From: an uncultured Bacilli bacterium
GTDB lineage: Bacteria > Bacillota_I > Bacilli_A > RF39 > UBA660
Assembly (NCBI GenBank): GCA_934087065.1
Contig: CAKOIS010000002.1
Coordinates: 11,880-75,879, forward strand
Direction of reading: 5' to 3'
Length of the DNA stretch: 64,000 nt
Made by a program: the position numbers and the translations under genes. Numbering within the stretch: the first letter of the stretch is position 1; the number at the start of each line of letters is the position of its first letter. The notes beneath the pieces were generated by a model. That model was not told the DNA's origin. It was given only the letters and a program-made list of their open reading frames with translations, and made no database searches. Shown in pieces: positions 4,323-46,931 of the stretch.

Positions 4323-4359
4323 AATCTCACTTTTTATATTGACAATACCTACTAAAAAA

Positions 4360-4567
4360 TGATAACATTATCTTGTAATAGTGAGAGTAACAAAAATTCT
4401 CAAGTTTTAAAAAACAAAGGAGAGATACACATGAAAACAAAATACACTTTAAAACCTAGTATGGGGGGGGGTTATTTAACTAGCGTAAATAACTATAGTT
4501 TTCATGTGCAATTAAATGGATAGAATAATTCTACCCATTTTTTCGTGTGTAAGAAAAGAGGTAAGGT
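4360..4567 (+). promoter_or_regulatory. conserved leader, copy 1: palindrome gataacattatc, uORF (4431-4484) containing a G9 tract (4463-4471), and a hairpin plus T-run (about 4505-4535)
   Basis: About 80% nucleotide identity with the leaders at 23205-23405, 33855-34049 and 45105-45302. The G-tract length differs between copies. Confidence 0.6.
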
Positions 4568-4810
4568 ATGACAAATGAAGAATTAAAGAAAATTGTTGGA
4601 AGAAACGTAAAAAAGTATAGGCTTATATATAATGCGTACAACAAAGAAAAACTTACTCAGAAAGACTTAGCTGAAAAGATAGGTGCAAAGACACCTCTTA
4701 TAGGTGCTTTAGAAAGCGAGAACAACAACATGGGAATAAGTATATATAACTTATATATGATAAGTAAAGTACTAAATGTACCAATAGAAAAGTTTTTTGA
4801 GGAGGAATAA
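4568..4810 (+). CDS. XRE-family helix-turn-helix transcriptional regulator (80 aa)
   Basis: HTH_3-like segment LTQKDLAEKIGAKTPLIGALE. Lies between the conserved leader and paralog 1, and only in this copy. Confidence 0.55.
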   Translation: MTNEELKKIVGRNVKKYRLIYNAYNKEKLTQKDLAEKIGAKTPLIGALESENNNMGISIYNLYMISKVLNVPIEKFFEEE

Positions 4811-4815
4811 AGTAT

Positions 4816-7308
4816 ATGAAGAATAAAAAAGGAATGATATATGGAGTACTATTAATGACTTGTTTAGTAATAGGTTTATCTTATGGAGCATTTATATTTA
4901 GTACAGATAAATATAGAAGTAGTGAATTATTAATAAGTAAGTTAAACTATAGTATAGATATACAAGAAGACGGAAGTAATAAGTCTACAATTAATGGAAG
5001 TTCAGTAACAGTACCAGCTAGTACTAAAGTATATTTAAATATTACTTTAACAAGTGTAAATGAAATAGATAGTAAATATACTTTAGCATATAAAACTAGC
5101 ACAAACGCTAAAGTAGAGTACTCAGATAGAACACCATGGAACACACAAGGAGTAATAAAAGGAATAGACAGTAACACTTATTCAAAAAAGATAAGAGTAG
5201 TAATAGATAACACAAATATCTCAACACCATCTACAGTAAACTTTCAAGTATATGGTGGATACTCATTTAACTCATATGCAAATATAGAACTAACTGATGG
5301 ATATGTATCAGTAAGTGGACCATACACAGAAGTTGCAACAAACATAGGAAATAGACTAGTAGATATAATAGAAAGTGATACAAGTTGTTTAACAAGTAAT
5401 TCTAACACTTGCTTGTATGGTGGAGAGAACATTAAAAACTATGTACAATACCCAGAAGACAATGACAAAACAAAGAACTTATGGAGAATAATAGGAAGTT
5501 ATCAAATAGAAGATCAAACACTACCAAAACTAATAAGTCAAAGTACAAGTAGTACTAGTACTTCAACACTAACAACAGACTTAACAAGTTTCTATAACAC
5601 ATTAGAAGATAAAGAAGTATTAGTACAACAAACAAATAAATTTAATTGTTTTACTAATACTTGTGTAGAAAGCACTTACAACAATATTGGCTTACTAACA
5701 GACTATGAATATAATCAAATAGGTGGAGTAAACTCATACTTAGCAACTACAGAAAAATATTACATAAATAGTTCTAGCGGAATAAAAGAAGTAACATCAA
5801 GTGGGATAACAAACCCAAGTAATACAAGTGGACTAAAACCAACAATATACTTACAAACTGGAGTACAAGTAACAGGAAGTGGAACAGTGAGTGACCCATA
5901 CATCATAAGTCCAGCAAGTGATATAAATTTAGTTGCTTATACATTAAATGGACAAGCAACAGATAAAAATTATGCAGATTTACTTAAAACAAATGTAGTA
6001 GATAAAGTAACATGTAAAAACGGAACAACAGCAACATGGGACAATACAGATTTTTCAATAAAATTAAAGAATATACATACACCAGACTATTGTACAATTG
6101 ATTTTGGAGATGGATACAGTGTTAGTTTAACAGCAACAAATGGTACAGTAAGTCCATCAAATATAACTGTAGGATATAATGGAAGTGCAAGTTTTACTGT
6201 AACACCTAACAGTGGATATAAACTAGAACTTGAAACAAACACATGTGGCGGAACACTATCAGGAAGTACATATACAATAAGTAATGTAACAAGTGCAAAA
6301 AGTTGTAGTATAACATTCAAGTCTTCTACACAAACATTATATGCTAAACTGCTTGCTGATAAATCAACAGTATTAACAAGAACAGACTTTAGTAAAGTTT
6401 TAACAAATGACAATACAAACACATTATATACAGGAACAGAGAATGGAACAACAGTATATTATTTTGCAGGGAATGCAACAGATAATTGGGTAAAGTTTGG
6501 AAAGAATGCAACTAATCAAGACTTATACTGGAGAATAATAAGAACAAACTCAGATGGTGGAGTAAGACTACTATACCATGGAACAAGTACTACAGCAACA
6601 GATGCGGTTATAAACACAAGTACAGCATTTAATACAACATATAATAACCCAATGTATGTAGGATATATGTATGGAACAAGCGGTTCATTAGTAAATAATA
6701 GAACAAATACAAATAATAGTACAATAAAAGGAATAATAGATACATGGTATGAAAATAATCTAAAAACTAACTATACAAAATACTTAAGTACAACAGCAGT
6801 ATATTGCAATGATAGAAGTAACCCAGCAGGTGGATATAACACTGGAGGTACAACATTCTACTATGGTGGATATACACGATTAATAACAAATAAAACACCA
6901 ACATATGACTGTACAGACACTAACGATAAATTCACAGTAGACACAAGTACAGGAAACGGGAAACTAACATACCCAATAGCATTAATGACAGCAGACGAAG
7001 TAAGTTTTGCAGGTGGACTAGCGGGAACAAACGCACCAACATGGTATTATTATAATAGTGCAAAGGGTAGCTCAACAGGTGACACCAGGTGGTGGCTGTT
7101 GTCTCCTTACTATTGGAGTAGCGGCCACGCTTACGTGTTTCGCGTGTACGGTTCGTCCTACCCTGGCCGCTTGAACTACAACAACGTCAACTACACCGCT
7201 CTTGGTGTTCGTCCGGCAGTTTCTCTCAAATCTTGTATCAAGACAAGTGGAGGAGATGGCTCGGCAAACGCACCATACACAATAGAAGAAAGTACAAGTG
7301 GGTGCTAA
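4816..7308 (+). CDS. secreted/surface protein, paralog 1 (830 aa). N-terminal signal anchor and S/T-rich linker. The C-terminal half is homologous to paralogs 2-4 and ends in an adenine-depleted hypervariable domain (WWLLSP...GVRPAVSLKSC)
   Basis: RBS gaggagg. The C-terminal ~330 aa align with ORFs 23406, 34050 and 45303. Terminal CLec/DUF1566-like pattern (YW..S...AY.V.F.V.G....GVRP). Confidence 0.8.
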   Translation: MKNKKGMIYGVLLMTCLVIGLSYGAFIFSTDKYRSSELLISKLNYSIDIQEDGSNKSTINGSSVTVPASTKVYLNITLTSVNEIDSKYTLAYKTSTNAKVEYSDRTPWNTQGVIKGIDSNTYSKKIRVVIDNTNISTPSTVNFQVYGGYSFNSYANIELTDGYVSVSGPYTEVATNIGNRLVDIIESDTSCLTSNSNTCLYGGENIKNYVQYPEDNDKTKNLWRIIGSYQIEDQTLPKLISQSTSSTSTSTLTTDLTSFYNTLEDKEVLVQQTNKFNCFTNTCVESTYNNIGLLTDYEYNQIGGVNSYLATTEKYYINSSSGIKEVTSSGITNPSNTSGLKPTIYLQTGVQVTGSGTVSDPYIISPASDINLVAYTLNGQATDKNYADLLKTNVVDKVTCKNGTTATWDNTDFSIKLKNIHTPDYCTIDFGDGYSVSLTATNGTVSPSNITVGYNGSASFTVTPNSGYKLELETNTCGGTLSGSTYTISNVTSAKSCSITFKSSTQTLYAKLLADKSTVLTRTDFSKVLTNDNTNTLYTGTENGTTVYYFAGNATDNWVKFGKNATNQDLYWRIIRTNSDGGVRLLYHGTSTTATDAVINTSTAFNTTYNNPMYVGYMYGTSGSLVNNRTNTNNSTIKGIIDTWYENNLKTNYTKYLSTTAVYCNDRSNPAGGYNTGGTTFYYGGYTRLITNKTPTYDCTDTNDKFTVDTSTGNGKLTYPIALMTADEVSFAGGLAGTNAPTWYYYNSAKGSSTGDTRWWLLSPYYWSSGHAYVFRVYGSSYPGRLNYNNVNYTALGVRPAVSLKSCIKTSGGDGSANAPYTIEESTSGC
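7090..7227 (+). other. putative DGR variable region (VR) of paralog 1
   Basis: A-depleted, GC-rich stretch in an AT-rich gene. The codons that vary against paralogs 2-4 are NNC (tac, cac, cgc, aac, acc). Conserved scaffold codons lack A. A conserved 3' boundary (gtttctctcaaatcttgtgtcaagacaag) contains a small inverted repeat. Confidence 0.55.
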
Positions 7309-23002: not shown

Positions 23003-23209
23003 ATGAATTTAACATATCAAAACAAAACTCTATATATAGATCTAGTAGGAGATGTGAACATAACAGAAGTAACAAAGAAAGTCACAAGTATTAGTGATAC
23101 ATACAAAATAAATAACTTAGTAGTTAATACAGATGAGGCATTCATTACTGACTACAAAAAAGCAAAACTAAAAAAAATAATAAGTAACACTCTTGACAAC
23201 CCTAATTAA
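23003..23209 (+). CDS. hypothetical small protein (68 aa)
   Basis: RBS agaggaaaa. No recognisable motif. Confidence 0.25.
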   Translation: MNLTYQNKTLYIDLVGDVNITEVTKKVTSISDTYKINNLVVNTDEAFITDYKKAKLKKIISNTLDNPN

Positions 23210-23405
23210 AAAATGATAAGATTATCTTGTAATAAAGATAGGAAGTGAAGCACATGGAAGTTAATTCTTTAGTACAAAACAAAGTACAAATTGGGGGGGG
23301 GTTATTTAAATAGTATAAATAACTATAGTTTTTCATGTGCAATTATATGGATAGAATAAGTCTACCCATTTTTTCGTGTCTTAAAAAGAAAGGAGTGCAT
23401 TAAAT
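23205..23405 (+). promoter_or_regulatory. conserved leader, copy 2: palindrome gataagattatc, uORF from ATG 23255, G10 tract 23293-23302, hairpin plus T-run about 23346-23372
   Basis: Homologous to the leaders at 4360, 33855 and 45105. Confidence 0.6.
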
Positions 23406-24905
23406 ATGCAAAGGAAACAATTAACACTTGTAATAGTAAGCTTACTAGTAGTAGTACTAAGTGTATCACTTGCTTACTTTACAGCACAAATAATAGGAAA
23501 GGGAAAAGATGTAAGTGTAACAAGCGCAAACCTACAAATAGTATTTACAGATAGTGATGGAGCTTTAACAGAAACTGATATAGAACCTGGCTGGACTAAA
23601 ACTAAAACATTTACTATTAAAAATGATACTAAGATAGAATACAAATATAATATAGTAATAAAAGACTTATTAAATACTTTTGTAACTAATGGATACTTAA
23701 AGTACAAGATAACTAGTACAAATAATGGATATAATATGACTGAGTTTAAAGATATTCCAAAGTCTAGTGCACCTAAAGATACAATATTAGCTTATAGTGT
23801 AGTAATACCTAATGGAGTAACACAAAGTTATACAATTGAATTTAAGTATGCAAACGATGAAAGTGTAGACCAAAGTGATGATATGGGTAAGAAACTAAGT
23901 GGAACACTATTTATAACTGAGGAAACAGAAGATCCAAACAAAACACTATATAATCAATTACTTGTAGACAAATCAAAAGTATTAACAAGAACAGACTTTA
24001 GTAAAGTTTTAATAGATAATAATACAAACACATTATATACTTCTACTGAAGATAGTAAAACAGTATATTATTTTGCAGGGAATGCAACAGATAACTGGGT
24101 AAAGTTTGGAAAGAATGCAAGTAATCAAGACTTGTACTGGAGAATAATAAGAACAAACTCAGATGGTAGTGTAAGACTTCTTTACCACGGAACAAGTACT
24201 ACAGCAACAGATGCATATATTGGTGAATCAGCATTTAATAATAGTAGTTATACTAATATAGCATATGTAAGTTATATGTACGGAAGTACAGGAAGTATAG
24301 CAAATGCTAGAACTAACCAAAAAAACTCTAGTACAATAAAAGACAAAATAGATAACTGGTATAAAATCAACTTAGAAGCAAAAGGTTATACAAAATACTT
24401 AAGTACAACAGCAGTATATTGTAATGATAGAACATATGCAGTATCTGGAGATACATACTTTGGAGCATACACAAGACTAATAACAAATAAAACACCAAGT
24501 TATGACTGTGCAACAACAGAAGACAAATTCACAGTAGACACAAGTACAGGTAACGGAAAACTAACATATCCAATAGCATTAATGACAGCAGACGAAGTAA
24601 GTTTTGCAGGTGGACGATATGGTACAAATGCACCAACATGGTATTATTATAATAGTGCAAATGGTAGTTCTACAGAATCAAATGCTTGGTGGTTGTTGTC
24701 TTCTCGCAATTGGAATGGCGGCGACGCTATTGTGTTCTTCGTGTATGGTTCGTCCGAACAACCTGGCAATTTGAGCAACAGTAGGGTTGACGGCACTTAC
24801 GGTGTGCGTCCAGCCTTATCACTAAAATCTTGTGTAAAATATGCAAGTGGAGATGGCTCAGCAAGTGACCCATACACAATAAAAGAAACTACAAATGGAT
24901 GCTAA
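23406..24905 (+). CDS. secreted/surface protein, paralog 2 (499 aa) with C-terminal A-depleted hypervariable domain
   Basis: N-terminal signal anchor MQRKQLTLVIVSLLVVVLSVSLA. First ~170 aa nearly identical to paralogs 3 and 4. C-terminus WWLLSS...GVRPALSLKSC. Confidence 0.85.
   Translation: MQRKQLTLVIVSLLVVVLSVSLAYFTAQIIGKGKDVSVTSANLQIVFTDSDGALTETDIEPGWTKTKTFTIKNDTKIEYKYNIVIKDLLNTFVTNGYLKYKITSTNNGYNMTEFKDIPKSSAPKDTILAYSVVIPNGVTQSYTIEFKYANDESVDQSDDMGKKLSGTLFITEETEDPNKTLYNQLLVDKSKVLTRTDFSKVLIDNNTNTLYTSTEDSKTVYYFAGNATDNWVKFGKNASNQDLYWRIIRTNSDGSVRLLYHGTSTTATDAYIGESAFNNSSYTNIAYVSYMYGSTGSIANARTNQKNSSTIKDKIDNWYKINLEAKGYTKYLSTTAVYCNDRTYAVSGDTYFGAYTRLITNKTPSYDCATTEDKFTVDTSTGNGKLTYPIALMTADEVSFAGGRYGTNAPTWYYYNSANGSSTESNAWWLLSSRNWNGGDAIVFFVYGSSEQPGNLSNSRVDGTYGVRPALSLKSCVKYASGDGSASDPYTIKETTNGC
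24687..24824 (+). other. putative DGR variable region (VR) of paralog 2
   Basis: A-depleted. Variable NNC/NNT codons (cgc, aat, ggc, gac, att, ttc, agc, aac, agt, gac, ggc, act, tac). One extra codon relative to copies 1 and 3. Confidence 0.5.
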
Positions 24906-33022: not shown

Positions 33023-33760
33023 ATGATTTACGTATTTATATTTATAACTGGTGTATGCCTAGGAAGTTTTTATGCTTGTATAGGCTACAGAATTCCAAAC
33101 AAAATTAGTACAGTAAAACCTAGTAGTTTTTGTCCAAACTGTAAAAAAAGTTTAAAGTGGTATATGAATATACCACTTCTAAGCTATATATTTTTAAAAG
33201 GAAAATGCGCTTACTGTAAAGAAAAGATAAGTATAACTTACTTTCTAATAGAACTAACTACAGGAATACTTTTCTTAATAAGCTACATGATATTTGGATT
33301 AAACTATCAATTAATAGTAGTATTAACTCTAATAAGTGCCTTAATGGTTAGTTTAGTAACAGACTTAAAATATTACTACATTTCAGATAGAGTAATAGTA
33401 GTTTCTTCTATTTTAGTAGCGTTTACTTACTTAAAATTCTTAGGAGTTAACTCATTTTTAAGCCATATACTATCAGGCGCTTTGATGTTTATATTAATGT
33501 ATTTACTAAAAATAATAACTACAAAAATATTTAAAAAAGAGTCACTAGGTGACGGGGACATCAAACTAATGATACTTATTGGTTTAACACTAGGAGTGTT
33601 TAACTCGTTTATTTCTTTATTTATATCAAGCGTAACAGCGCTTATATATACAATACTATTTATAAAGAAGAAAGATGCACTTATCCCATTTGGACCTTTC
33701 CTTTTAATAGGTGCGATAGTTACATACATTCTAGTTTTTTATCAAATAACTATAATATAG
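33023..33760 (+). CDS. pilD: prepilin peptidase (A24 family)
   Basis: N-terminal CPNC...CAYC zinc-binding module. Catalytic-region motif GDGDIKLM. Polytopic membrane protein. Confidence 0.85.
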   Translation: MIYVFIFITGVCLGSFYACIGYRIPNKISTVKPSSFCPNCKKSLKWYMNIPLLSYIFLKGKCAYCKEKISITYFLIELTTGILFLISYMIFGLNYQLIVVLTLISALMVSLVTDLKYYYISDRVIVVSSILVAFTYLKFLGVNSFLSHILSGALMFILMYLLKIITTKIFKKESLGDGDIKLMILIGLTLGVFNSFISLFISSVTALIYTILFIKKKDALIPFGPFLLIGAIVTYILVFYQITII

Positions 33761-33854
33761 TCTCATTTCGTAAAAACTTGCAAATGCAGGAAAGTTCGGA
33801 ATGAGTTTTTATAAAATATGTAAAACATGTGAAAAAAACTTGAAATATAGTGCT

Positions 33855-34049
33855 TTTTTTGATAAGATTATCTTGTAATAAAGATAGGAAGTGAAGTACA
33901 TGAAAATTAACTCTTTAGTACAAAATAAAGTACAAAATGGGGGGGGGTTATTTAACTAGCATAAATAACTATAGTTTTTCATGTGCAATTAAATGGATAG
34001 AATAAGTCTATCCATTTTTCGTGTCTTAAAAAGAAAGGAGAGCATTAAT
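33855..34049 (+). promoter_or_regulatory. conserved leader, copy 3: palindrome gataagattatc, uORF from ATG 33900, G9 tract 33939-33947, perfect 11-bp hairpin plus T-run about 33991-34026
   Basis: Homologous to the other three leaders. The hairpin aaatggataga-ataag-tctatccattt is followed by tttcgtg. Confidence 0.6.
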
Positions 34050-35531
34050 ATGCAACGAAAACAATTAACACTTGTAATAGTAAGCTTACTTGTAGTAGTA
34101 CTAAGTGTATCACTAGCTTACTTTACAGCACAAATAATAGGAAAGGGGAAAACTGTAGACGTTAGTAGTGCTAACTTACAAATAGTATTTACAGATAGTG
34201 ATGGAGCTTTAACAGAAACTGATATAGAACCAGGCTGGAGTGCAACTAAAACATTTACTATTAAAAATGATACTAAGACAGAATACAAATATAATATAGT
34301 AATAAAAGACTTATTAAATACTTTTGTAACAGAAGGATATTTACAATACAAAATAACTAGTACAAACGATGGATATAATATGACTGAGTTTAAAGATATT
34401 CCAAAGTCTAGTATAGCAACAGATACAATACTAGCTTATAGTGTAGTAATACCTAATGGAGTAACACAAAGTTACACAATTGAATTTAAGTATGCAAACG
34501 ATGAAAGTGTAGACCAAAGTGATGATATGGGTAAGAAACTAAGTGGAACATTATTTATAACTGAAGGAACAGAAGATCCAAATAAAACACTATATAATCA
34601 ATTACTTGTAGACAAATCAACAGTATTAACAAGAACAGACTTTAGTAAAGTTTTAACAGATAATAATACAAACACATTATATACTTCTACTGAAGACAGT
34701 AAAACAGTATATTATTTTGCAGGGAATGCAACAGATAACTGGGTAAAGTTTGGAAAGAATGAAAGTAATCAAGATTTATACTGGAGAATAATAAGAACAA
34801 ACTCAGATGGTGGAGTAAGACTACTATATCATGGCACAAGTACTACAGCAACAGACGCATATATAGGAATATCAAAATTTAATACAGAATATAATGATCC
34901 AATGTATGTAGGATATATGTATGGAACAAGCGGATCACTAGTAAACAACAGAACAAATATAAGTGATAGTACAATAAAAACAACACTAGATAATTGGTAT
35001 AAAGATAATTTGAATACAAATTATGGAAAATACTTAAGTACAACAGCAGTATATTGTAACGATAGAAGTACATCAAATGATACATCCTTTGGAGCATTCA
35101 CAAGACTAAAAACAAATAAAACACCAAGTTATGACTGTGCAGCAACAGAAGACAAATTCACAGTAGATAATAGTACAGGCAACGGTAAACTAACATACCC
35201 AATAGCCTTAATGACAGCAGACGAAGTAAGTTTTGCAGGTGGACTATGGGCAACAAATGCTTCTACTTGGTATTATTATAATAGTGCAAACGGAAGCTCA
35301 ACAGGCTCAAACTGGTGGTGGTTGTTGTCTCCTCGCCTTTGGATTGGCGGCTACGCTAGCGTGTTCAACGTGAACGGTTCGTCCGGCCCTGGCCGCTTGT
35401 ACTTCGACGACGTCAACAACTCTTACGGTGTGCGTCCGTCAGTTTCTCTCAAATCTTGTGTCAAGACAAGTGGTGGAGATGGCTCAGCAAGCACACCATA
35501 CACAATAGAAGAAACTTCAAGTGGATGCTAA
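34050..35531 (+). CDS. secreted/surface protein, paralog 3 (493 aa; start moved from 33993 to the conserved MQRKQ ATG)
   Basis: RBS aaaggagag plus ATG 34050 is the position conserved in paralogs 2 and 4. C-terminus WWLLSP...GVRPSVSLKSC. Confidence 0.85.
   Translation: MQRKQLTLVIVSLLVVVLSVSLAYFTAQIIGKGKTVDVSSANLQIVFTDSDGALTETDIEPGWSATKTFTIKNDTKTEYKYNIVIKDLLNTFVTEGYLQYKITSTNDGYNMTEFKDIPKSSIATDTILAYSVVIPNGVTQSYTIEFKYANDESVDQSDDMGKKLSGTLFITEGTEDPNKTLYNQLLVDKSTVLTRTDFSKVLTDNNTNTLYTSTEDSKTVYYFAGNATDNWVKFGKNESNQDLYWRIIRTNSDGGVRLLYHGTSTTATDAYIGISKFNTEYNDPMYVGYMYGTSGSLVNNRTNISDSTIKTTLDNWYKDNLNTNYGKYLSTTAVYCNDRSTSNDTSFGAFTRLKTNKTPSYDCAATEDKFTVDNSTGNGKLTYPIALMTADEVSFAGGLWATNASTWYYYNSANGSSTGSNWWWLLSPRLWIGGYASVFNVNGSSGPGRLYFDDVNNSYGVRPSVSLKSCVKTSGGDGSASTPYTIEETSSGC
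35313..35450 (+). other. putative DGR variable region (VR) of paralog 3
   Basis: 17 A in about 138 nt within an AT-rich genome. All but one A lie in NNC codons (att, tac, agc, aac, aac, tac, gac, gac, aac, aac, tac). Scaffold codons (tgg tgg ttg ttg tct cct ... ggt tcg tcc ... cct ggc cgc ttg ... ggt gtg cgt ccg) are A-free. Confidence 0.55.
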
Positions 35532-40896: not shown

Positions 40897-41004
40897 TTAT
40901 TTGTTTCTCAAGGCGTATTCACTTGAAAAACCGCTCAGAATAGGTTGTAAAAGGTTAAACCTTACCTCAATGGCGCGTCTTATTATTTAAAGGAGGTATG
41001 AAAA

Positions 41005-45084: not shown

Positions 45085-45104
45085 AGGTACTTGAAAAGAG
45101 TATC

Positions 45105-45302
45105 TTTTTTTGATATCATTAATTATGTAATAAAGATAGGAAGTGAAGTACATGAAAATTAACTCTTTAGTACAAAATAAAGTACAATATGGGGGGGGTT
45201 ATTTAAATAGTATAAATAACTATAGTTTTTCATGTGCAATTAAATGGATAGAATAAGTCTATCCATTTTTTCGTGTCTTAAAAAGAAAGGAGAGCATTAA
45301 AT
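45105..45302 (+). promoter_or_regulatory. conserved leader, copy 4: uORF from ATG 45152, G8 tract 45191-45198, perfect hairpin plus T-run about 45239-45272
   Basis: Homologous to the other leaders. With 8 G the uORF stays in frame through the left arm of the hairpin and stops at the TAA in its loop. Confidence 0.6.
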
Positions 45303-46931
45303 ATGCAACGAAAACAATTAACACTTGTAATAGTAAGCTTACTTGTAGTAGTACTAACTGTATCACTAGCTTACTTTACCGTACAAATAATAGGAAAGGG
45401 GAAATCTGTAGACGTAACAAGTGCTAACTTACAAATAGTATTCACAGATAGTGATGGAGCTTTAACAGAAACTGATATAGAACCTGGCTGGACTAAAACT
45501 AAAACATTTACTATTAAAAATGATACTAAGATAGAATACAAATATAATATAGTAATAAAAGACTTATTAAATACTTTTGTAACTAATGGATACTTAAAGT
45601 ACAAGATAACTAGTACAAATAATGGATATAATATGACTGAGTTTAAAGATATTCCAAAGTCTAGTGCACCTAAAGATACAATATTAGCTTATAGTGTAGT
45701 AATACCTAATGGAGTAACACAAAGTTATACAATTGAATTTAAGTATGCAAACGATGAAAGTGTAGACCAAAGTGATGATATGGGTAAGAAACTAAGTGGA
45801 ACTCTTTATATAGAGAAAGGGACTTTACCAACGTTAAGTGAGAAACTTTTTGCTGATAACCCAACAATACAAACAAGAAGTTCATTTGATGCAGTATTTA
45901 CTGAAACAAACACAGGAACTTTATATAAAGCAACAGAAAGTATAGCAGGTAGTCCTGCAAAAGATGTGTATTACTTTGCAGGAGATGCAAAGAATAACTG
46001 GGTTAATTTTGGAAAATATCAAACAGATTATGTTGTCTATAGAGGTTATTCTGAAACAGGCAGTAAATACATAGATTATTTGACAATGGATGCATGTACT
46101 AGTGCCTCAAATTATAATATTAATTGTACTGAACAAATATATTGGAATAAGGGTAATGATATATACTGGAGAATAGTAAGAACAAACTACGATGGAAGTG
46201 TAAAACTTCTATATGCGGGAAATAGCCCTGATACAACAAGTGGATACATAGGAACAAGTGCATTCAATAGCACAAATAATGATTCAATGTATGTAGGATA
46301 TAAATATGGTACAAGTGGGACTCTAGCAAATAACAGATTAAATACAAATGATAGTACAATAAAAACTTTTATAGATAACTGGTATAGTAATAACTTAACA
46401 AGTTATACAAAATATATAAGTACAGAAGCAGTATATTGTAATGACAGAAAAGCACTAAGCTATAGTATAAGTAGTTCTTTTGATTACTATGTACAAACAA
46501 GACTAGGTGCAGGAAATCCAACATATGATTGTGAAGATAGTAGTGATGCATTTTCAGGAAGTAATAGTGAAGCAAAATTAACACACCCAATAGGACTAAT
46601 GACAGCAGATGAAATAACATATGCAGGTGGTAAAGATACTACAGGCTTAACAAGTCCATATGCATGGTATTATCTAAACAGTGCTGGGGAAAGTATAACC
46701 GGAACACAATGGTGGTGGTCCTTGTCACCTCGACTCTGGAATGGTGTCATTTCGTACGTTTGGTTCGTTTTTGGTTCTTCTATTCCGGGTGCCCTTTTGA
46801 GCACCGCCGATGTGAACTTTGAGAATGGTGTTCGCCCCGCCATTTCTCTCAAATCTTGTGTCAAGACAAGTGGTGGAGATGGTTCAGCTAGTAACCCATA
46901 CACAATACAAGAAACAGCAAGTGGTTGTTAA
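45303..46931 (+). CDS. secreted/surface protein, paralog 4 (542 aa), with a more divergent C-terminal half and an A-depleted hypervariable terminal domain
   Basis: The N-terminal 170 aa are nearly identical to paralogs 2 and 3. The C-terminal domain WWWSLSP...GVRPAISLKSC is related but more diverged. Confidence 0.85.
   Translation: MQRKQLTLVIVSLLVVVLTVSLAYFTVQIIGKGKSVDVTSANLQIVFTDSDGALTETDIEPGWTKTKTFTIKNDTKIEYKYNIVIKDLLNTFVTNGYLKYKITSTNNGYNMTEFKDIPKSSAPKDTILAYSVVIPNGVTQSYTIEFKYANDESVDQSDDMGKKLSGTLYIEKGTLPTLSEKLFADNPTIQTRSSFDAVFTETNTGTLYKATESIAGSPAKDVYYFAGDAKNNWVNFGKYQTDYVVYRGYSETGSKYIDYLTMDACTSASNYNINCTEQIYWNKGNDIYWRIVRTNYDGSVKLLYAGNSPDTTSGYIGTSAFNSTNNDSMYVGYKYGTSGTLANNRLNTNDSTIKTFIDNWYSNNLTSYTKYISTEAVYCNDRKALSYSISSSFDYYVQTRLGAGNPTYDCEDSSDAFSGSNSEAKLTHPIGLMTADEITYAGGKDTTGLTSPYAWYYLNSAGESITGTQWWWSLSPRLWNGVISYVWFVFGSSIPGALLSTADVNFENGVRPAISLKSCVKTSGGDGSASNPYTIQETASGC
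46710..46850 (+). other. putative DGR-type variable region (VR) of paralog 4, a divergent class
   Basis: About 12% A. The conserved 3' boundary tttctctcaaatcttgtgtcaagacaagtggtggagatgg is shared with copies 1 and 3. Confidence 0.45.

Follow-up and report, generated by a model that had tools for sequence, protein, structure and literature searches.

Introduction

In Streptococcus gallolyticus, GCAGA repeats within leader-peptide genes of the pil1 and pil3 loci act as a phase-variable attenuator, as has been shown experimentally (Danne et al. 2014, PMC3894217). There, a leader ORF (open reading frame) that stops at least 28 nucleotides (nt) upstream of the terminator gives low expression, and one that stops adjacent to or inside the terminator gives high expression (PMC3894217). 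The effect is ribosome-dependent and needs the leader Shine–Dalgarno (SD) sequence, the ATG, and the stem-loop (PMC3894217). Documented cases of a switch made of a leader-peptide repeat and a terminator are so far confined to two pilus operons in a single streptococcal species. Here we describe a leader cassette that occurs four times in a 64-kb stretch of DNA (29% GC; hereafter the window) from an uncultured human-gut Bacillota (Firmicute). It has in common with pil1 and pil3 a promoter, an SD-ATG leader ORF containing a simple repeat, a stem-loop (in the cassette a putative terminator), and the SD of a surface-structure gene. The repeat in the window is a poly-G tract, and the cassette is probably a stochastic on/off switch in which tract length sets the frame of the leader ORF and, through that frame, whether a ribosome would occlude the terminator.

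As in S. gallolyticus, there is more than one locus per genome and the repeat number differs between strains. The leader stop shifts from 39-49 nt upstream of the terminator to adjacent to or inside it in S. gallolyticus (PMC3894217), and here it ends 31-35 nt ahead of the hairpin or else reaches 10-15 nt into it. Because the distances found here fall on matching sides of the threshold of at least 28 nt, attenuation is plausible and would not be new in kind. The two systems are nevertheless analogues and not homologues, as the cassette has neither sequence homology to the streptococcal leaders nor GCAGA repeats. Its repeat is a G homopolymer of 6-12 nt rather than an array of 13-26 pentamers, its leader is much shorter (91 nt from AUG to hairpin), and its hairpin is much weaker, with a folding energy of -7 to -11.7 kcal/mol compared to -18.7 and -28.2 kcal/mol in S. 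gallolyticus. Unlike the streptococcal leaders, the cassette has two extra conserved helices, P1 (over the AUG) and P3, and it is modular, being found with at least three gene types at a minimum of four loci, with targets that are not sortase pili.

Four other groups of systems share part of this design. In Escherichia coli pyrBI and in trp-type attenuation, where termination is prevented by translation over the attenuator, read-through depends, as proposed here, on where the leader-peptide ribosome stands with respect to a terminator hairpin. An upstream hairpin could synchronise ribosome and polymerase as a pause site, like trp 1:2. Unlike in pyrBI and trp, the signal here would be genetic, a heritable change of frame, and not the supply of charged tRNA or UTP; no alternative antiterminator helix was found in the leader. 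The tract itself resembles the poly-G/C contingency loci of Campylobacter, Neisseria, Haemophilus and Helicobacter in being G8-G12 in an AT-rich genome, uninterrupted, hypervariable between strains, and associated with surface molecules. The tract of those loci is either within the structural gene, where it frameshifts the product, or in a promoter spacer, whereas here it lies in a separate upstream ORF and its proposed effect is on transcription termination.

As in Mycoplasma vlp-type families, a homogenised 5' block (promoter, leader and N-terminus) is joined to variable C-termini, and each gene has its own homopolymer. The vlp homopolymer is a poly-A tract in the promoter spacer. In contrast, the tract described here is in a leader ORF, and the organism has a cell wall, since related contigs encode PBP, MraY, MurG, FtsW and SpoVIF. 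Finally, the cassette is like Clostridioides difficile cwpV in that a surface protein of a gut Firmicute would be governed by whether an intrinsic terminator forms in the leader; the cwpV switch itself works by site-specific DNA inversion, and not by repeat slippage or translation. If the proposed switch is real, the principle known from S. gallolyticus arose independently with a mononucleotide tract, as a portable cassette in a prevalent uncultured human-gut Firmicute, and the cassette gates a family of very high diversity, whose members are putative surface or binding proteins, plus a small transcription factor. Tract length at each locus would then be a sequence-readable marker of stochastic surface variation, scorable in metagenomes and metatranscriptomes, and upstream ORFs would join the places to be examined in phase-variation scans, which normally check coding regions and promoters only.

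Four leader cassettes in the window

The window holds four leader cassettes, all on the forward strand and each ~200 base pairs (bp) long. An alignment of all four gives 78% mean column identity, in good agreement with the ~80% of the original prediction. Copies 2-4 are much nearer to one another than to copy 1, in which the 5' leader and the N-terminus of the upstream ORF have no sequence relation to the other copies, and in which the SD, ATG and P1 are retained. The order of elements is promoter, SD-ATG leader ORF with poly-G tract, hairpin with T-run, and main-gene SD. Below, the frame of the leader ORF that reaches the hairpin is called long and the frames that stop ahead of it are called short.

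In cassette 3, the promoter (33840-33868) comprises a -35 TTGAAA (33840-33845), a 17-nt spacer, a TG (33860-33861) and a -10 TAAGAT (33863-33868). The leader ORF with its SD occupies 33887-33959: the SD AGGAAGTGA is at 33887-33895 and the ATG at 33900, and 19 codons are followed by a TAG at 33957-33959. An upstream ORF with its own ribosome-binding site had been claimed here, and the ORF at 33900-33959, with an SD placed 5 nt ahead of its ATG, confirms it. This is the short frame (predicted OFF), and its stop ends 31 nt ahead of the hairpin. The tract, G9 at 33939-33947, is the predicted hypermutable element. The 5' strand of P1, GUACAUGAAAA (33896-33906), overlaps the AUG of the leader ORF, and the 3' strand, GUUUUUCAUGUGC (33974-33986), lies directly 5' of the terminator. 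The P3 hairpin (33947-33969; GUUAUUUA, loop ACUAGCA, UAAAUAAC) lies directly 3' of the tract.

The putative attenuator/terminator hairpin of cassette 3 (33991-34019; AAAUGGAUAGA-AUAAG-UCUAUCCAUUU) is formed by a perfect 11-bp inverted repeat (33991-34001 and 34007-34017, loop ATAAG) with a folding energy of -11.7 kcal/mol, and is followed by a T-run to 34019, then CGTG and the main SD AAAGGAG. The 'tttcgtg' originally read after the repeat overstates the run by one base, as only TT, not TTT, is left between the 11-bp stem and CGTG. The long-frame stop of this copy, a TAA, would fall at 34003-34005, in the hairpin loop.

The other three cassettes have the same layout. Cassette 1 (4339-4567) has a -35 TTGACA (4339-4344), a -10 TAACAT (4363-4368), a leader ORF of 30 amino acids (aa) in the long frame (4431-4523) with its TAG in the left arm of the hairpin, a G9 tract (4463-4471), and a hairpin with an A.C mismatch (4514-4540) whose T-run ends at 4543. 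Cassette 2 (23193-23405) has a -35 TTGACA (23193-23198), a -10 TAAGAT (23217-23222), a 19-aa leader ORF in the short frame (23254-23313), a G9 tract (23293-23301), and a mismatched hairpin (23345-23371; -5.7 kcal/mol) whose T-run ends at 23374. Cassette 4 (45091-45302) has a -35 TTGAAA (45091-45096), a -10 TATCAT (45114-45119), a 34-aa leader ORF in the long frame (45152-45256) with its TAA (45254-45256) in the hairpin loop, a G8 tract (45191-45198), and a perfect hairpin (45242-45268) whose T-run ends at 45271.

Several details of the original prediction change with these coordinates. Four leaders had been placed ahead of four paralogs, and four are present, but copy 1 precedes an 80-aa HTH_3 protein, behind which comes an 830-aa relative instead of a ~500-aa paralog. 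The tract lengths given for copies 1 and 3 (G9) and copy 4 (G8) hold, whereas copy 2 is G9, not G10. The inverted repeat with T-run is perfect in copies 3 and 4 as described, and carries an A.C mismatch in copies 1 and 2 and in nearly all leaders elsewhere.

Rarity and length variation of the poly-G tract

A search of the window for G8 matched at the four leader tracts only, with 7 overlapping matches as compared to 0.03 expected in shuffles. No other run of G or C of at least 6 nt occurs in the 64-kb window, and none of at least 7 nt occurs outside the leaders in 368 kb of related loci. The view that a G8-G10 run is atypical for this A/T-rich genome is thus borne out, the four tracts being the only G/C runs of at least 6 nt in the window.

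For comparison, 28 loci were obtained from an exact-pattern scan of metagenomes (human-gut assemblies), and nine further loci were reached through the copy-4 protein and through called leader peptides (queried as a concatenated peptide). A search with nhmmer over these loci yielded 45 leaders, 40 of them complete. Their tracts are G6, G8 (12 leaders), G9 (24), G10 (3), G11 (3) or G12, with one interrupted. Loci with the same upstream genes differ in tract length (e.g., G9/G10/G11, G8/G9 and G9/G8). The loci L001 and L002 are 99.94% identical over 4.8 kb, and the tract is their only indel; between L001 and the window there are 86 substitutions over 7.6 kb, and again the tract is the only indel. 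At the copy-4 locus, the tract is G9 in L001 and G8 in L002. The variable tract length that had been proposed from the window alone is therefore found between assemblies, both at the same chromosomal site and between near-identical strains, and the length differences come from independent Illumina-type assemblies. A tract that is an indel hotspot, and yet is kept uninterrupted, carries the signature of a contingency repeat.

The single interrupted tract, GGGAGGGGG in L024, results from a synonymous GGG to GGA change and occurs alongside a degenerate hairpin. Other in-frame remodelling at the tract was also seen, namely G9 followed by AGGAGG, a 12-nt duplication in P3, and an insertion of AAAAAAGGAGA ahead of the tract (L040/L041 10039-10053; L038 10040-10090; L017), and the region appears from these variants to be a general indel hotspot. 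Many metagenome contigs end inside or beside the leader (L002, L005, L010, L016, L017, L022 and L030), as expected for a multi-copy repeat, and because contigs break there, tract states are under-sampled in assemblies.

Frames and stop positions of the leader ORF

In the long register the leader reads GGU UAU UUA ... UGG AUA GAA UAA and stops in the hairpin loop, or, in variants with one T fewer, at a UAG in the left arm of the hairpin. The remaining two registers stop at UAG or UAA 6-12 nt past the tract. Stop positions in the 40 complete leaders are accordingly bimodal: 14 end 31-35 nt before the hairpin, 25 end 10-15 nt inside it, and one runs through. Seven leaders are biased, having been found through their long peptide, and excluding them leaves 33, of which 19 are long and 14 short. 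Frame loss is thus tolerated, with 42% of unbiased leaders out of frame, unlike in an ordinary gene. Both states occur within one genome, as copies 1 and 4 of the window are long and copies 2 and 3 short. The frame analysis of the original prediction was correct for copy 3, where G9 leads to a TAG ending 12 nt past the tract, and for copy 4, where G8 leads to the TAA in the hairpin loop; it fails for copy 1, which is in the long frame despite its G9 because the register ahead of the tract differs.

The SD, the ATG and an open frame to the tract are retained even in 5' leaders that are unrelated in sequence (window copy 1, L009, L015 and L035). The encoded peptide is not retained in the same way: its N-terminus is replaced in copy 1 and L009, its middle is replaced in L035-L037, and its C-terminus is frame-shifted in TTTT variants, which still end in the hairpin. 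As the peptide is not conserved while SD, ATG and stop position are kept, these leaders point to a role of translation in cis and not to a peptide product.

The same comparison bears on whether the small ORF is instead genuine in its own right, encoding a 30-36-aa peptide between a promoter and a terminator that belong to it, with the tract switching the peptide and the downstream gene expressed through incidental read-through only. An order of promoter, SD, ORF and terminator overlapping the stop is indeed that of an ordinary gene, public assemblies include gene-caller predictions of the peptide, and a segment GGGYL(N/T)S(I/V)NNYSF recurs. We nonetheless regard this explanation as very unlikely, since the N-terminal, middle and C-terminal parts are each replaced somewhere while the RNA features and stop position are kept, and since the out-of-frame fraction among unbiased copies is as high as 42%. 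The peptide search matched this lineage only, with no other family search made, and the lack of any above-chance promoter between hairpin and main gene means that the large gene needs read-through. A double-glycine-type or quorum peptide was rejected by reasoning only, as the leader is unfit, the peptide is not conserved, and the adjacent 80-aa HTH protein is too small for an RRNPP receptor. A classical intragenic poly-G contingency gene was also rejected: the tract is ~100 nt ahead of the main ATG and belongs to a separate ORF, neither in frame nor fused with the main gene.

These observations would be brought together by a self-contained switch in each cassette, in which tract length sets the frame of the leader ORF. 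A sigma-A-type promoter would make a leader RNA containing a short ORF with a strong SD, and the poly-G tract would gain or lose G residues by slipped-strand mispairing in replication. In two of the three registers, a ribosome would stop 6-12 nt past the tract and leave the RNA 31-35 nt before the hairpin and U-run, so that the hairpin could form, most transcripts would end there, and the surface-protein gene would be OFF or low. In the third register, the ribosome would stop inside the hairpin, in its left arm or loop, and occlude it, and the polymerase would continue to the main gene, equipped with an SD of its own (ON). With a separate tract in every copy, the three to four or more genes would switch independently. 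We infer transcription start, termination at the hairpin, translation of the leader ORF and the equation of the long ORF with ON. The interpretation put forward in the original prediction is supported at the level of sequence, as all of its predictions open to test there agree with what was found.

The promoter and the shared -10/+1 region

An architecture of TTGAAA or TTGACA, a 17/18-nt spacer and TGnTAAGAT is found by consensus match at all four copies. The cassette 3 promoter has 9/12 consensus matches together with the TG extension, and transcription is predicted to start near 33875. The palindrome gataagattatc that had been reported in this region is an imperfect dyad and corresponds to the TGnTAAGAT extended -10 of the promoter.

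The tract is preceded by the best promoter at a distance of 70-100 nt, and no promoter-like pair flanks it. A promoter-spacer homopolymer switch of the Neisseria porA/opc or Mycoplasma vlp type was rejected, as the tract is not between the -35 and the -10. An internal promoter, TTTTCA-16-TAGAAT at 33976-34003, was also discarded, because such matches occur at chance density (126 found as compared to 129 expected per 20 kb). No above-chance promoter was found between the hairpin and the main gene, and the large gene therefore depends on read-through.

The -10/+1 region common to all cassettes carries the dyads AAGATTATCTT and ATCTT-N6-AAGAT, which could be a candidate operator. In cassettes 3 and 4 (33830-33860 and 45085-45112), the -35 TTGAAA is located in the loop of a terminator-like hairpin of the preceding gene, and a further example of a hairpin enclosing the -35 is seen in L003 (AAAAAGCACT-TGAAATAT-AGTGCTTTTTT). 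A -35 inside the terminator-like hairpin of the preceding gene suggests that the cassette is insulated from upstream transcription.

RNA structure of the leader

For the copy-3 leader the folding energy is -42.9 kcal/mol (z = -5.1 relative to shuffles). P1 pairs the AUG region with UUUU(U)CAUGUGC directly 5' of the hairpin, and this duplex has energies from -10 to -16 kcal/mol across all 5' variants, including those unrelated in sequence, as compared to ~-4 kcal/mol for shuffles. P3 is a 7-9-bp hairpin directly after the tract and is kept in four sequence versions (including L035, L036 and L037). It holds both short-frame stop codons, and its variable positions lie in the loop; one guess is that it acts as a polymerase pause hairpin. 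P2, in which the tract itself is paired, is weak, and neither copy 1 nor L009 retains it; as P2 is not conserved, the G residues are not a conserved structural partner. We rejected both a conserved P2 and the idea that the tract, by pairing with CCC in the right arm, forms an antiterminator strand, because the pairing is weak and absent in copy 1 and L009, and the flanking AAAU is not universal.

The terminal hairpin of copies 3 and 4 is perfect, with 11 bp that include 3 GC pairs, a U-run and a folding energy of -11.7 kcal/mol. Gene-end terminators of the same genome have the same build and similar energies of -10 to -13 kcal/mol. A simple terminator scanner did not flag the leader hairpin. 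Five hairpins are degenerate (AAAUAGAUAGA or GGAUAUAA; L007, L015, L023, L024 and L039); all five belong to long-frame leaders and may be 'locked-on' alleles.

RNAalifold on 33 leaders gave only 2 covarying pairs. The program is unsuited to this set, whose members are too alike and whose copies with divergent 5' parts are misaligned, and folds of the duplexes and hairpins of each variant were used instead. An exact-pattern scan of 185,579 species genomes found the leader in one species only, the metagenome-assembled genome UBA11492, in four copies, and returned no distant relatives for covariation. Literature searches on UBA11492 and on precedents for a homopolymer in a leader ORF found none beyond S. 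gallolyticus. Plasmid and phage collections gave no match.

With P1, P2 and P3 arranged as a three-way junction ahead of a terminator, the leader might also be a ligand- or protein-binding RNA, in which the G residues serve structure or recognition and differences in tract length reflect neutral noise or sequencing error. A closed junction ahead of a terminator does resemble a riboswitch, and P1 is conserved. However, P3 can be replaced wholesale in sequence and length and its loop varies, P2 is not conserved, and a tract range of 6-12 nt is hard to reconcile with a precise binding pocket. Rfam gave no leader match at the gathering threshold, and at E values up to 10 there were only chance matches to snoRNAs. 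Sequencing error fits poorly with length differences in independent Illumina-type assemblies and with a tract that is the sole indel between near-identical strains. Taken together, we consider a binding RNA highly improbable.

Somewhat less improbable, though still unlikely, is that the tract is phase-variable and acts in another way, through length-dependent RNA folding or stability, polymerase slippage or pausing on a C9 template, Rho-type polarity once translation has stopped early, or frameshifting stimulated by P3. The leader folds far better than shuffles, the conserved P1 and P3 are superfluous to the simple model of hairpin occlusion, and the terminator is weak in most copies, all of which would suit such a mechanism. 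A hairpin directly after a slippery run is also the usual layout of a frameshift site. In contrast, the tract pairs only weakly, with no such pairing kept in copy 1 or L009, and the spacing between tract and P3 is 0-2 nt, whereas frameshift stimulators usually lie 5-9 nt from the slippery site. The bimodal stops and the retained SD and ATG would, moreover, have to be coincidence.

Strength of the proposed mechanism

Several points weigh against occlusion of the hairpin by a leader-translating ribosome. One is distance: the leader AUG is only 91 nt ahead of the hairpin. In E. coli, terminators remain functional when located in the first 100 bp of a coding region, and Bacillus subtilis largely lacks transcription-translation coupling, so that a pause would be needed, which can only be conjectured. 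P1, once formed, would sequester the leader AUG. The hairpin carries an A.C mismatch and has a folding energy of -7 kcal/mol in most copies (-5.7 kcal/mol in copy 2), and only -1.8 to -2.4 kcal/mol in five; termination may accordingly be weak or factor-dependent. One frame that reaches the hairpin combined with two that stop at least 28 nt upstream occurs in 14% of composition-matched shuffles, and this arrangement is thus not significant alone. Finally, any conservation of the long frame would have to be judged from highly similar sequences, and the three leaders with a diverged middle were found through their long peptide. The flanks of further loci were searched for second, unbiased diverged leaders, and none were found.

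P3 with the following U-run, P1, or both would presumably help the ribosome and polymerase to meet within the 91 nt between AUG and hairpin. We conjecture that P3 followed by UAUAGUUUUU might act as a pause site, giving the ribosome time to catch up, and that P1 might limit each leader to one round of translation. In a bolder and rather doubtful extension, P1 and P3 together would form a kinetic device, either a pause combined with a single-round translation timer or a frameshift stimulator, and the very short leader with its deliberately weak terminator would give a graded, frame-dependent output; the XRE regulator driven by the same module might then act on the -10/+1 dyad and wire the switches into a network for combinatorial surface phenotypes.

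Genes behind the cassettes and genomic setting

Cassette 1 is followed by two genes (4568-7308), one for the 80-aa HTH_3/XRE regulator (4568-4810) and the other for the 830-aa DUF6273-related protein (4816-7308). Because cassette 1 drives the XRE/HTH_3 regulator, a transcription factor would itself be under the stochastic switch. The same arrangement of cassette and XRE regulator was seen in L004, L009 and L037.

The main genes of the remaining cassettes encode paralogs of 499 aa (cassette 2, 23406-24905), 493 aa (cassette 3, 34034-35531, with the SD at 34034-34040 and the ATG at 34050) and 542 aa (cassette 4, 45303-46931), and these cassette-driven surface-type genes are monocistronic. The first ~175 aa of the paralogs in copies 2-4 are 97-100% identical and the C-terminal halves diverge, a pattern that suggests a homogenised 5' block with diversifying 3' ends. 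The paralogs have an N-terminal transmembrane helix and, with low confidence, a beta-sandwich (AlphaFold model of the 493-aa paralog, pLDDT 45), and they carry a weak DUF6273 (lectin-like) signature in the C-terminal region. Clustering at 90% identity divides this very large, hyper-diverse family into more than 7,963 clusters in gut metagenomes, and published work discusses DUF6273 as a target of diversity-generating retroelements. A PDB sequence search was empty and NCBIfam gave no match, and the exact copy-3 protein was not on record in a protein look-up.

A third, unrelated gene type was found behind the same leader. It encodes a 944-aa protein starting MKKFDLGIIVTTLII (L036 5936-8770; L008, L020, L031 and L039), for which neither Pfam nor NCBIfam gave a match. 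One chromosomal site carries different downstream gene types in different strains.

The cassettes of the window lie among housekeeping genes, including polA, parE/parC, aspS and hrcA-grpE-dnaK. A type IV prepilin peptidase (A24) gene is located directly upstream of cassette 3 (33023-33760); the N-termini of the paralogs are without a clear class III signal. Elsewhere in the window, an ordinary ribosomal protein L21 leader (Rfam RF00559, 37.9 bits) was identified at 40919-40990, upstream of rplU.

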